Source: an uncultured Desulfobacter sp.
GTDB taxonomy: Bacteria > Desulfobacterota > Desulfobacteria > Desulfobacterales > Desulfobacteraceae
Direction of reading: 5' to 3'
DNA: 64,000 nt
Assembly (NCBI GenBank): GCA_963665095.1
Contig: OY762069.1
Coordinates: 1,440,001 to 1,504,000 of the forward strand
Shown here: in pieces, positions 25,414 to 28,825 of the stretch
How positions within the stretch are numbered: position 1 is the first letter of the stretch
How the letters are laid out: the number at the start of each line of letters is the position of its first letter
The notes under the pieces: generated by a model
What the model saw: the letters and a program-made list of their open reading frames with translations, nothing else
Database searches by the model: none
What the model was told of the DNA's origin: nothing
Translations under genes and position numbers: made by a program

Positions 25414-25989
25414 TTATCCGGCCCTGATTTTGGACCCGCCTGATAAGATTATCAGGCTTGATACAAGTGCGTTTTCGGCGTTGGATTTCACCGCCCGGCA
25501 ATAATTGATGAAACTTGACGGCAGACGGCTGTTACTGACACCAGCGGATATCTGCCCCCGAAGCCTTCGCCAGGTTCGGCTCACTGGAAATGTATCCTGA
25601 AAAAAGGCAAGCCAGCGGTTTATTGTGTTCCGGCTAATGCCAGTTCGTATGGACAAATCATAAACGGTGATTTTTTCATTGGTATTTTGCCAGTCTGTTA
25701 AAACACACAGAATAACTGCAAACCAGTAGACTTTTCTCCCCAGAAAACGGCAGGACGGCGGCATCAATCTTTTGCGACACCCTTCGGTTCCACAACATAG
25801 GCTGAACTGAATAAAGAATTCCTCCGGCACGCCCTCAGGCTCTCCCCGGGGCTTGCGCATGTAATTGCTGAAATATAAGGGGCCTCCACAATGCGGACAA
25901 GGCAACTGTCTGTACTGTTTTGCTGTATTTTTATCGATTTCGTAAAGATGGAAAAAAAGATTTTTGTTTTTAATAAGTTCTGATAGCAT
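25414..25989 (-). CDS. Zinc-ribbon + HTH accessory protein (DUF6431-like)
   Basis: CPHCGG, CC...GCRKR..P, ISRNTINRW HTH; RBS GCAGGAG. Confidence 0.7.
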   Translation of the reverse strand: MLSELIKNKNLFFHLYEIDKNTAKQYRQLPCPHCGGPLYFSNYMRKPRGEPEGVPEEFFIQFSLCCGTEGCRKRLMPPSCRFLGRKVYWFAVILCVLTDWQNTNEKITVYDLSIRTGISRNTINRWLAFFQDTFPVSRTWRRLRGQISAGVSNSRLPSSFINYCRAVKSNAENALVSSLIILSGGSKIRAG

Positions 25990-26124
25990 ATCTCCTGCCC
26001 TGTTAGGGTAATAGGGGCAGAAGTTCCATTGATTATTTGCGAGATAAACGGGGGAGCTTCTGCCTCATCCCTGGCATATCTTGCAAATTATCTTTAATTT
26101 TTCCATGATTTTTTGTGATCATTC

Positions 26125-27501
26125 TCACTCCTGGGGAGACCGAACCCGCTGCTCAAGGAGGTTGGCGATGTATTCACATGAGAATGCAGAGAACTTAAAG
26201 GCATCTTCAATGGCCATGGCAACTTGTTCCCGGGAGTAGATTTCACTCAAGGCCACGATTTGCCGTACATGATGGGAGGCGTTAAGCCGCCTGTTCTGCA
26301 ATTGCCTGTAATACTCCCGGGCCTTGTCAGAGAGGCTTAAAAAACGCATATAAATTGCCTGGTCTCTGGCCTTTTTGCGCTGGCTCAAAAGGATTTTAGA
26401 GTGATCAGGATCTTCAAGGTCGTTTTTGCGGCCATAGGATCTGACATGGCGGGCAACCAACTTGTCTTCATGGTAAAAGCAGATCCGATCAGGGTAAAGC
26501 TTGGCAGTCAAAGCCACCCCTGCCAGCTGGGCGGGTACTGTGTAAGCATTTGTATCGATGACTACCCTGTACTGTCTTGAAGCCCGTACCTGCTTTACCA
26601 CACCGATATCATAGGGTTCTGACGGCAGAGGGTATAGGTGGGGCAATTCCAGGGCATACATCTCTGCGGGCTTTTGACCGGTCTCTCCGTGGGTTCTGAC
26701 ATTGGCGACAGTATCAAGCCAGTGTTTGCAGGTGGGCTCCATGATCTTAAAATCAGGGATTTCAAGACCGTTGAGCAGATTCTTTTTGACATAGCCCACA
26801 GCATTTTCAACCCGGCCTTTTTCATTACCCTTGCGCACATTACAGGGAACAATTGTAAATCCGTAATAATCTGCAAAATCAAGGTATCTGGGGTTGAAGA
26901 CCGGGGCTTTCCCCAGCAGTCTTTTTAGAACAGCGGATTTGAGATTGTCCACCATGACCTTTTCCGGCACCTTTCCAAAAAACTCAAATGCATTCTGGTG
27001 GCAGCCTAAAAAATGCTCCATGGTCTGGGAGACCGTGAACTCAACGTACATCATGCGGCTGTGGCACATCACCATCACAAAAAAGCTCAACCGCCGGGTC
27101 GTGTTGCCCACCCTTACTGTACTATAAGAACCCCAGTCCACCTGGGCAGCTTCACCCGGAGCAAAACTCAGTTTCAAATACGCCTTTGTTTTGGGCGGCC
27201 GCACCTTCCTGACATAATCCTCAACAATGGTGATGCCCCCGGCAAAACCATCCTGGGTGATTCGTTGAAATATCTGGCGGGAACTGTAGGGATGTTTTTC
27301 AAGCATATGCAGGATGGCGTTCTTATACGGATCAAGCTTGCTTTCTCTGGGGGCTGACTGTCTGGGCTGGTACCTTTTCAGGTTGGCCCACCTGGCAACT
27401 GTCCTGGGGTCCAGATCAAGGGCATTGGCAATCTGGCTGTATGTCAGGCCGTCTCGGGTAAAGTAATTTCTGATTTGAACATAGGTTTCGTAATCAATCA
27501 T
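26125..27501 (-). CDS. istA: IS21 transposase IstA, truncated by 33 aa through nested insertion
   Basis: SKLDPYK, PGEAAQVDWG, VDNLKSAV, EKGRVE; the stop codon is supplied by the TGA end of the nested element. Confidence 0.95.
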   Translation of the reverse strand: MIDYETYVQIRNYFTRDGLTYSQIANALDLDPRTVARWANLKRYQPRQSAPRESKLDPYKNAILHMLEKHPYSSRQIFQRITQDGFAGGITIVEDYVRKVRPPKTKAYLKLSFAPGEAAQVDWGSYSTVRVGNTTRRLSFFVMVMCHSRMMYVEFTVSQTMEHFLGCHQNAFEFFGKVPEKVMVDNLKSAVLKRLLGKAPVFNPRYLDFADYYGFTIVPCNVRKGNEKGRVENAVGYVKKNLLNGLEIPDFKIMEPTCKHWLDTVANVRTHGETGQKPAEMYALELPHLYPLPSEPYDIGVVKQVRASRQYRVVIDTNAYTVPAQLAGVALTAKLYPDRICFYHEDKLVARHVRSYGRKNDLEDPDHSKILLSQRKKARDQAIYMRFLSLSDKAREYYRQLQNRRLNASHHVRQIVALSEIYSREQVAMAIEDAFKFSAFSCEYIANLLEQRVRSPQE

Positions 27502-27880
27502 GGTTGCCCTCCGCTGCTGCTTTTAGAATATCTGAAAGACGCAGCATGGAGCCGTGCCGTTTTGATTTACCAGGAGCAGGGTCAAGGGCAAGCACCTGGT
27601 AAATAGGTCTCTGCCAGGCAATCAGCCCATTCTGTATTAACCCGGAACGTGCTGTCTTCAGGCCATCAGAATCCATGCACAGCCGATCCATGATCGCCTT
27701 ATCTCCATAGTAGCTGATGCCTTGACTGTCGGCCACACACACCAGAAACAGATATAGGGCGGACTGGGAGTGTGTACACCTGTCAATGTGCCGTTCACGC
27801 ACCAGGCGATGATCGATCCAACTGAAGCTTTGGGGTGTTTTTCGAACCCTGGATGGTAAAATGGGGGCCTTTGCAATCAT
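27494..27880 (-). CDS. Hypothetical winged-helix-like accessory protein
   Basis: 128 aa, FSWIDHRL, LYLFL..VAD..G.SYY, L...GLIAW..P.YQVL; RBS GAAGGAG; overlaps the istA start. Confidence 0.7.
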   Translation of the reverse strand: MIAKAPILPSRVRKTPQSFSWIDHRLVRERHIDRCTHSQSALYLFLVCVADSQGISYYGDKAIMDRLCMDSDGLKTARSGLIQNGLIAWQRPIYQVLALDPAPGKSKRHGSMLRLSDILKAAAEGNHD

Positions 27881-28361
27881 TTTGCTCTCCTTCTTTTTGG
27901 GGTTGTGAACATAAAATGTCTTGCCCGTATTTTTTCATACGAAGGAGCGTGGAAGCGATGTCATCTTGTAACGCACTGCCTGTAAAGTTGGCGATTAACC
28001 CTATAATGACAGGAGGTTGCGCCCGTAAGAAATCTTGTAACGCATTGTCCATGAATTGCGTTGAATCCTGTTTATTTTCAGCCTGTTGGGGCAATATCGA
28101 GTCTTGTAACGTATCTGGGCTTTTGGTCTTCTTCCAATATCCGGGATTCTTCTTTCTCCATTCCTGAACACGTTCAACATGGGCAGGCCCACAAAAGTAG
28201 TTTCGATTTTCAGGCTTGTTCAGCCATTTTTTCTGGCTGCACCTTTTGCTGGCTTTTCTGCACTCAGATCTGGAACAGTATTTTTGAGAGTCTATATTTC
28301 TTGGATTAGGAGCGAATAATCTTCTACAATTTCGGCACCTTCTTTTCTTGAGTAGTCCCAT
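27795..28361 (-). CDS. Hypothetical Cys-rich basic accessory protein
   Basis: 188 aa, CRNC...YCS..EC, WR..NPGYW; GGAGG upstream; lies inside the element's IRs. Confidence 0.7.
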   Translation of the reverse strand: MGLLKKRRCRNCRRLFAPNPRNIDSQKYCSRSECRKASKRCSQKKWLNKPENRNYFCGPAHVERVQEWRKKNPGYWKKTKSPDTLQDSILPQQAENKQDSTQFMDNALQDFLRAQPPVIIGLIANFTGSALQDDIASTLLRMKKYGQDILCSQPQKEGEQNDCKGPHFTIQGSKNTPKLQLDRSSPGA

Positions 28362-28587
28362 CTACATATTGCCTCCGATTCAAATCAGACATGAATAAGA
28401 TCAGTATGTACGGAAAAAAGCATAGGGCAAAGAAAGGAAAAAAATGAAGAAGACGAAATTTTTAAATTTGATTTTTAAGAGAAGAAAAACCAGCTAAGAA
28501 CATACATTTTCAAACCGGGGATTTGGCTGCATTTTCAAGACGGCCCTGACAGATTATCAATATGATAGTCAGGGCCTTTTACTTTTT

Positions 28588-28700
28588 GGTGCCCATCTCG
28601 AACCCGGAAGACCCGATTATATGTTTTGGTCTTTAGCGTCGATGGTACTGTCATAGGAGTGTTAGGAGTGTATTGTTTGGGAGAGTAGAACGTCGCCGTT
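28588..28700 (+). pseudogene. Degenerate 5'-truncated 5S rRNA copy 2
   Basis: Near-copy of 21526-21629 with an extra TAGGAGTGT duplication; preceded by the same terminator and followed by a decayed one. Confidence 0.88.
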
Positions 28701-28825
28701 TTTTTTAAAGCCCTGATCAGTTTATAACGAATGATCTTAGCTTTTTGTTTAGATTAAAACTATCTGAATCAATCAGAATACTACCTTATGAGTCCAATAA
28801 TTCGTTGACAAAATAAAGCTTATAG

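Follow-up and report, generated by a model that had tools for sequence, protein, structure and literature searches.

A four-gene IS21 variant built on a portable cassette with codon-locked internal repeats

IS21 is a model for ATPase-assisted transposition and has been described as a two-gene system encoding the transposase IstA and its helper ATPase IstB; the remark on additional open reading frames (ORFs) in IS21 in PMC3281130 is a general one. Here we describe a widespread four-gene form of IS21. It was found in a 64,000-nucleotide window of an uncultured Desulfobacter sp. genome (positions 1,440,001 to 1,504,000 of contig OY762069.1, GenBank assembly GCA_963665095.1), where two further genes, orfA and orfB, precede istA. 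The element is an IS21 variant built on an undescribed portable cassette. A literature search found no description of this cassette, with ISfinder and TnPedia lying outside the search and subscription papers mostly missing from it.

The element resembles IS21 and IS5376 in that IstA and IstB score above the NCBIfam cut-offs, the ends are TG...CA with tandem sub-repeats, target duplications are 5-7 bp, and specificity is weak. It differs from them in its length of 3.35 kb, in two extra coupled genes, and in three internal phased repeats ahead of istA. Tn7-like elements with TniQ/TnsD likewise combine a DDE transposase and an AAA+ ATPase with additional genes for zinc-binding and DNA-binding proteins. 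In contrast to those elements, this one has no TniQ/TnsD family match, attachment site, or fixed target, and its conserved DNA sites lie inside the element. The Mu internal activating sequence and the Hin enhancer are phased sites for protein binding that lie in coding DNA of the element itself, each serving one recombinase. The present cassette, unlike these, is common to unrelated engines, and its reader appears to be the element-encoded OrfA. RepA_N initiators (pSK41 and pTZ2162-type; PDB 4PTA, 4PT7, 4PQL, and 5KBJ) and DnaD-N proteins have a winged-helix domain similar to that of OrfB, and according to the accessible part of PMC5703833 the RepA_N initiators also carry direct repeats within coding sequence. 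OrfB, however, is without their C-terminal primase-binding domain, and the repeats lie in the neighboring orfA, 69 bp apart, and track OrfA. Finally, one other locus (L195) and several relatives have the three tandem tyrosine recombinases of RIT (recombinase in trio) elements, the mobilization mechanism of which is stated as unknown in the available text of PMC5737581. Unlike RIT elements, they are headed by orfA with its repeats plus either orfB or a CHC2 finger.

What is new here is the codon-locking and phasing of the repeats, the assignment of their motif to OrfA rather than OrfB, the partner range of the cassette, and a negative test of targeting. Since the cassette of this four-gene form also stands in front of recombinase trios and other elements, a control layer common to unrelated mobility chemistries is suggested. 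The OrfA family comprises at least 2,200 clusters at 50% identity, has no Pfam model, and offers a predictable cognate site for each clade. The three 13-bp repeats can be recoded without changing the protein, and the cassette is present in a cultured soil host, Caballeronia SBC1/SBC2.

The IS21 element and its two accessory genes

The host genome is a single contig of 6.9 Mb with 13 full copies of the element (left ends number 13 and right-end matches 18). With a length of 3,352 bp, an intact copy contains, in order, orfA (188 amino acids), orfB (128 amino acids), istA (491 amino acids), and istB (244 amino acids). The genes overlap serially, by 86 nucleotides at orfA/orfB and 8 at both orfB/istA and, in the intact copy, istA/istB, and an AGGAG/GGAGG-type sequence lies ahead of each ATG. 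The copy in the window is on the minus strand, just 3' of a 5S ribosomal RNA (rRNA) gene, and has TG...CA ends (TGTCAGG at 28551 and 21652) and the 5-bp duplication GATTA. Its istA is interrupted near the 3' end, after codon 458, and its istB is displaced by 3.5 kb. The features of this copy are as follows.

28503-28551, minus strand: left end of IS21, TGTCAGG..., with two tandem GAAAATG-type sub-repeats; defined from 13 left ends in the genome, with the same architecture in 58 relatives
27795-28361, minus strand: orfA, 188 amino acids; Cys4 zinc ribbon and basic helices (residues 1-80), linker, and helical hairpin; from related clusters, structural model, and selection
27494-27880, minus strand: orfB, 128 amino acids; winged helix (HTH_36/RepA_N/DnaD-N-like), linker, and C-terminal helix; from related clusters, structural model, and selection
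26128-27501, minus strand: istA, first 458 of 491 codons, DDE transposase, cut by a nested element; NF033546 275.6 bits (cut-off 160)
22478-22586, minus strand: 3' remainder of istA, matching the end of intact istA
21751-22485, minus strand: istB, AAA+ helper ATPase, 244 amino acids; Walker A GPVGVGKT, Walker B LLIMDE; NF038214 269.5 bits (cut-off 200)
21652-21700, minus strand: right end of IS21

IstA exceeds the Pfam cut-offs for both rve and Mu-transpos_C_2, and IstB scores 253 bits with PF01695. The element thus has the defining features of the IS21 family, namely IstA, an IstB encoded downstream of istA, TG...CA ends with tandem sub-repeats, and a short target duplication. It departs from the two-gene archetype in having four ORFs between the ends of the intact copy. 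Contigs of four public sequencing runs were compared with the intact copy, and those of one run contained the empty site of another IS21 copy with a single copy of the duplication, which confirms the element boundaries. No end-to-end circle joint was listed among the contigs of the four runs, contigs being prone to drop rare forms. Read depth over the element was ~10-14 times that of the flank in three runs; depth is no measure of copy number and was not counted for or against replication. None of the runs listed as containing the element was an RNA run. In this genome 11 of the 13 copies have a 5-7-bp duplication, two of the 11 being paired crosswise after an apparent inversion. The duplications of these two inverted copies (G000:C1 3767485-3778896) match between the copies rather than within each, which suggests inversion of the stretch between them.

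Both accessory ORFs lie on the minus strand inside the TG...CA ends and run in serial overlap up to istA, as noted in a preliminary description of the locus, which had called one product a Cys4 basic protein and the other winged-helix-like; each characterization held. OrfA has cysteines at positions 9, 12, 29, and 34, and its residues 1-80 include 25 Lys/Arg against 5 Asp/Glu, giving an isoelectric point of 10.6. Its C-terminal 28 residues fall in the overlap with orfB, and the length of this part differs between relatives. Neither OrfA nor OrfB of the window has a match in Pfam or NCBIfam, and a PDB sequence search returned no hit for either family. In the OrfA model the zinc ribbon and basic helices have predicted local distance difference test (pLDDT) values of 85-97 over residues 1-80. 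Compared with the PDB and viral structure libraries, this model gave no match above Z 3.4, all rows spanning residues 99-158 only; ribbon-helix-helix rows at Z ~3 over residues 100-155 were not taken as evidence. The weak hits of an OrfA family search were zinc fingers and HNH-associated arms.

The OrfB model folds as a winged helix (pLDDT 83) and ends after a linker and one helix. The top five Foldseek rows were staphylococcal RepA_N initiator domains (E 0.001-0.012). The top VIA row, 4PTA, had a Z-score of 8.6 and a root mean square deviation of 2.6 over 83 aligned residues, less than one Z unit from CRP-type and other winged helices, and the comparison with DnaB (5WTN) gave Z 7.4. Relatives of OrfB match HTH_36, DnaD_N, and phage initiator families, and four of the five PHROG families that they match are initiators or DnaD-like, with 24 of 62 members matching phrog_19658. 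For HTH_36 (PF13730) the window OrfB gave no hit, the homologue L172 scored 34.8 bits against a cut-off of 25, two more homologues scored 24.8, and 7 of 52 close members matched weakly; Pfam RepA_N gave no row among the 52 OrfB members.

Related proteins are numerous, with 1,117 clusters for OrfA and 2,314 for OrfB at 90% identity. The median ratio of nonsynonymous to synonymous substitution rates (dN/dS) was 0.28 for orfA, 0.21 for orfB, 0.095 for istA, and 0.072 for istB, as judged from 143 of 2,850 pairs picked for unsaturated istA among 76 distinct elements, and the dN distances of orfA and orfB followed those of istA (Spearman 0.88-0.90). The two ORFs are genuine genes under purifying selection, beyond chance frames.

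Loci were collected with each protein as seed. With OrfB as seed, 80 genome loci were collected; orfA was present in 74 of the 76 with sufficient upstream DNA and istA was next in 76 of 77; the two loci without a scored orfA carry diverged Cys4 ORFs. In 80 metagenome loci seeded with OrfA, orfB was next in 75 of 75 and istA followed in 63 of 63. Both scans rely on short conserved patterns and are therefore biased to close relatives. Thirty loci were seeded with IstA. At ≥57% identity orfB was present in all 8 testable loci (one had no upstream DNA), and at 30-37% identity both genes were found in 9, orfA only in 3, another Cys4 ORF in 1, and neither in 5, the remaining 3 being too short. Conservation, dN/dS, and linkage across relatives bear out the earlier view that these are built-in accessory genes rather than cargo peculiar to a single copy. 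Among the named hosts are Desulfobacterales, Verrucomicrobiota, Planctomycetota, Acidobacteriota, and Proteobacteria. Among at least 5,000 matching records in a plasmid collection, the same six Caballeronia records carry orfA, orfB, and the sole IstA at ≥60% identity. In viral contigs, 141 pattern matches yielded one weak hit, in an unrelated HNH-type context.

That the cassette-bearing IS21 elements form a single clade is not supported: the IstA tree forces at least two label changes, so one origin is not demonstrated. Within the protein lengths searched, an OrfA-OrfB frameshift fusion is unlikely, the overlap being absent in several relatives (L054, L055, and L059). A different Cys-rich basic ORF (141 amino acids) lies directly ahead of istA at L187:2587-3012, in a separate IstA clade, and the related plasmid loci L192 and L193 have, by annotation only, no gene at the corresponding place.

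A portable cassette with codon-locked repeats

The cassette is not confined to IS21. A fourteenth orfA in the host genome, in L195, encodes an OrfA 41% identical to that of the window and carries the three repeats of the window copy; behind it lie genes for a CHC2 zinc finger and three tyrosine recombinases. This locus (L195:4684-8351, corresponding to G000:C1 about 6182680-6186350) is without orfB and gives three PF00589 hits above the cut-off, as expected of RIT; it is an extended RIT element in the same genome. In a search with a broad OrfA profile, 37 of 151 genomes from the order of the window and 40 of 401 from the phylum gave a match. Among 83 distinct orfA places, those bearing orfB were followed by IS21 (38), by tyrosine recombinases (8), or by no engine within reach (7). 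The other partners were a ParB-like gene (6, with IstA close behind in 3), IstA directly (3), a primase core and then a recombinase (2), an rve transposase (2), a helix-turn-helix (HTH) gene with excisionase and TrfA (2), and a CHC2 finger (2), with 13 unclear or followed by nothing. Because near-copies occur among these places, the counts do not represent independent events. The preliminary description had taken homologues mostly unlinked to istAB as a ground for rejecting its inference. Close homologues are in fact linked to these genes, but the cassette is not IS21-specific, since at least 15 of the 83 places head other engines. Regardless of engine, the cassette opens the operon in the same orientation, and in the arrays examined ~25-135 bp separate the last repeat from the next start. 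We conclude that orfA with its repeats, with or without orfB, is a portable cassette heading unrelated mobile elements.

Two variant arrangements were seen. L220, L259, L261, L262, and L264 are IS21-like with orfA, repeats, and a ParB-like gene ahead of istA, L264 adding a CHC2 finger after istB. In L268 and L269 orfA is followed by a small HTH gene and an excisionase-like HTH_17 gene, and L268 also has a TrfA-type replication initiator.

The repeats of the window copy are as follows.

28101-28113, minus strand: repeat 1, TACGTTACAAGAC, orfA codons 84-87
28032-28044, minus strand: repeat 2, TGCGTTACAAGAT, 69 bp after repeat 1
27963-27975, minus strand: repeat 3, TGCGTTACAAGAT, 69 bp after repeat 2 and ~94 bp ahead of the orfB start

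The consensus is TGCGTTACAAGAT; TTAA lies about one helical turn further on and CAA about two. The repeats encode ALQD, and where the residue is kept the codon is GCG in 97-100%, TTA in 95-97%, and CAA in 100% of cases, against background use in istA and istB of the same elements of 15, 14, and 37%, respectively. Across 76 elements, codon-locked conserved columns numbered 28 of 79 in orfA, 1 of 43 in orfB, 20 of 324 in istA, and 13 of 174 in istB. The GC-rich Caballeronia copy retains the repeats. The only matches to the motif in the genome outside the IS21 copies are in orfA of L195.

The spacing is equally constrained. In 126 distinct arrays it was 69+69 bp in 108 and 81+69 bp in 15. A second motif class, TTGCAAAGATGGACGCG, comprises 26 arrays, 14 of which have a spacing of 69+59 bp, 59 not being a multiple of three. 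Other distant OrfA clades have the motifs CTTGATATACAA (69+69) and GTGAGATACAAG (66, 64, 66), and in a TTTAAGA/TTCAAGA class the repeats lie 3' of the orfA stop codon in three of four loci (L263, L264, and L265), spaced 69-70 bp apart. Among 150 representative proteins, 199 of 267 spacings were 23 codons; 55 others (18-34 codons) clustered near half turns (p 0.002 versus uniform choice), and 13 spacings outside this range were excluded. No alternative reading frame over the repeats is conserved, the best being open in 45 of 117 sequences, and RNA-structure signal at the repeats was at shuffle level (mean z -0.1 and 0.12, 25 sequences). Codon locking, frames, folding, and the non-coding copies together rule out a peptide repeat, an overlapping ORF, or an RNA structure as the cause of the repeats. 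Because they are codon-locked and evenly spaced, with no conserved alternative frame and no RNA fold, we infer that the repeats are sites on double-stranded DNA under geometric constraint. They do not appear to be internal IstA sites, the motif being unlike the end sub-repeats and the ends varying while the motif stays.

OrfA is the likely reader of these sites, as judged by comparison of protein trees with motifs. In a tree built from the OrfA N-terminal domain, truncated so as to leave out the repeats, the window motif corresponds to one clade (22 rows, support 100/99) that includes L195, and partner genes are mixed within clades. OrfB is disfavored as reader, because the motif changes with the OrfA clade and similar OrfBs pair with different motifs. 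Specifically, L263 and L284 encode OrfBs that share 64-73% identity with GCAAAGATGG-class OrfBs and nest among them, yet their OrfAs are 30-43% identical and their motif differs. Repeat arrays are also kept without orfB, in L195, L220, L236, L262, L264, L275, and L279.

Proposed role of the cassette and alternatives

We propose that OrfA recognizes its own phased repeats and through them regulates the operon behind it, probably with OrfB as a co-factor, a reading that on sequence evidence we give an even chance of being correct. The zinc ribbon and basic helices of OrfA would engage double-stranded DNA, and three sites ~6.6 turns apart could wrap or loop the DNA just before the start of the next gene. 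Such a complex may act as a roadblock or promoter switch, throttling or switching the genes behind it, and OrfB may oligomerize on it. Target choice would remain with IstB, as in ordinary IS21. Expression control is the simplest reading because the position of the cassette (first, co-oriented, and with repeats near the next start) holds for any engine.

Several observations weigh against this proposal. A scan for promoter consensus near the repeats found 1 site versus 2.3 expected, and the second motif class conserves nothing 3' of the last repeat. At the protein level the neighbors of the ALQD peptide are under selection, with G121, L122, and G128 having free codons. Co-segregation of the motif with OrfA is weak by itself, because repeats in or beside orfA travel with the gene, and in elements without orfB an OrfB encoded elsewhere in the genome could act in trans, the genome of L195 having such a gene. 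The partners are also strikingly replication-related (RepA_N/DnaD-like OrfB, CHC2 finger, DnaG-N, TrfA, and ParB), which a purely transcriptional role leaves unexplained.

These partners lead to the main rival explanation, possible though doubtful, of iteron-like priming, in which OrfA would mark the repeats and OrfB or a primase-type partner would recruit host helicase and primase for copy-out or for copying of an excised circle. The best structural matches of OrfB are RepA_N initiator domains and its PHROG matches are mostly initiators or DnaD-like, and elements lacking orfB often have a CHC2 finger, DnaG-N, or ParB gene in its place, or one that leads to TrfA. According to the accessible part of PMC5703833, RepA_N binds Rep boxes within the rep gene and contacts primase, and an HTH_36 domain can replace RepA_N; IS21 is listed, in the available text of 10.1101/2023.06.07.543989, as one of the families that have circular intermediates and a replication step (copy-out). 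Nevertheless, the motif tracks OrfA and not the initiator-like OrfB, which has no RepA-like C-terminal domain and whose RepA_N match is within one Z unit of those of CRP and other winged helices. Moreover, the DNA next to the repeats has no pronounced AT-rich region suited to unwinding (AT 0.42-0.73 in 12-bp bins), and in L236 and L239 orfA directly precedes istA. In its fullest form, which we put forward tentatively, the cassette would be a plug-in priming module in which a zinc ribbon reads half-turn-phased iterons in its own gene and works with an exchangeable replication partner, so that DDE and tyrosine-recombinase elements could start their own copy-out without awaiting host restart proteins. 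If replication were the true role, it would address how copy-out starts and how RIT elements move.

The half-turn phasing would also suit an enhancer of transposition or recombination, with OrfA bending DNA at phased sites ~440-590 bp inside the left end to aid end pairing. The distance to the left end is nearly fixed, orfA starting ~190 bp inside it. We consider this role unlikely: one cassette serves DDE transposases and tyrosine recombinases, which are mixed on the OrfA tree, and this sharing argues against specific contact with one recombinase. It is quite improbable that the genes are passengers aiding the host or element persistence (for example by addiction or anti-defense) with no role in mobility. 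Most IS21 elements do move without them, as in the five IstA-seeded loci above that had enough upstream DNA and neither gene. Against this stand the translational coupling to istA, the fixed first position, the tracking of istA by dN, and the absence of any toxin or defense family match in library searches.

The preliminary description had cast the two proteins as target-selection or regulatory factors, analogous to TniQ/TnsD, that could explain insertion of the window copy into a terminator. The interrupted hairpin is described by two features.

21637-21651, plus strand: left arm of the terminator-like hairpin that follows the 5S rRNA gene and is interrupted here; its last bases are GATTA (21647-21651)
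28552-28580, plus strand: second GATTA (28552-28556) with the loop and right arm of this hairpin

The window copy does lie in a hairpin, with a hairpin-energy percentile of 0.029, versus 0.16-0.99 for the other 12 copies. A further 33 loci from eight genomes gave 29 rows, 19 of which (six genomes) had a 5-7-bp duplication, none of them in the lowest 5% that was taken to define a hairpin site. Ten rows without a duplication were left out, two of which are low (L067 at 0.01 and L039 at 0.05, the right boundary of L039 being misplaced). In total, 1 of 30 duplicated sites from 7 genomes lay in a hairpin, which matches chance and hence indicates no terminator targeting. The 30 sites, with duplications of 5-7 bp, share no target-site consensus; the repeat motif, as a candidate target signal, was absent from all 29 flanks (0 of 29); and no insertion interrupts the other three rRNA-operon ends in the genome. 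TniQ/TnsD families matched none of 114 OrfA (E ≤ 0.05) and none of 52 OrfB (E ≤ 0.1) sequences. In ordinary IS21, according to the part of PMC11208146 available, there is no strong target sequence specificity and IstB provides structure-based selectivity. Target selection by OrfA and OrfB in the manner of TniQ/TnsD, steering the window copy into the rRNA terminator, is therefore highly improbable, and of the earlier suggestion the regulatory half survives as the best reading while the account of the terminator insertion is not upheld.

Nested and neighboring elements

The istA of the window copy is cut by a separate element.

22587-26127, minus strand: nested element of 3,541 bp with its own ends and the duplication CCAGGAG; not part of IS21

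It has four genes, encoding a 191-amino acid Cys-rich ORF, a 481-amino acid rve transposase, an AAA_22 ATPase, and an 80-amino acid ORF. The transposase scores under the cut-offs for IS481, IS3, IS21, and ISNCY. The ends are very short (TGAGA...TCTCA), and the genome has 13 copies, most with 5-7-bp duplications. Of the 13, two have istA of this IS21 as their insertion site and another seven are found within ~11 kb of an IS21 copy, a proximity that may reflect shared hotspots or attraction to IS21. Another IS21 copy (G000:C1 5489882-5491407) carries a different insert of ~1.5 kb within a few bases of the same istA 3'-end position as in the window copy.

Window positions 21520-21632 and 28580-28704 are degenerate partial 5S copies located after the real 5S gene, and a terminator-like hairpin closes each of them. 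Tandem degenerate 5S units are also present at the three other rRNA-operon ends, Rfam scoring the first 5S only. Within the nested element, window positions 22665-22861 are 80% similar to a stretch found at more than 12 other places in the genome, where it adjoins an rve transposase 28% identical to the nested one; this stretch is a third multi-copy element.

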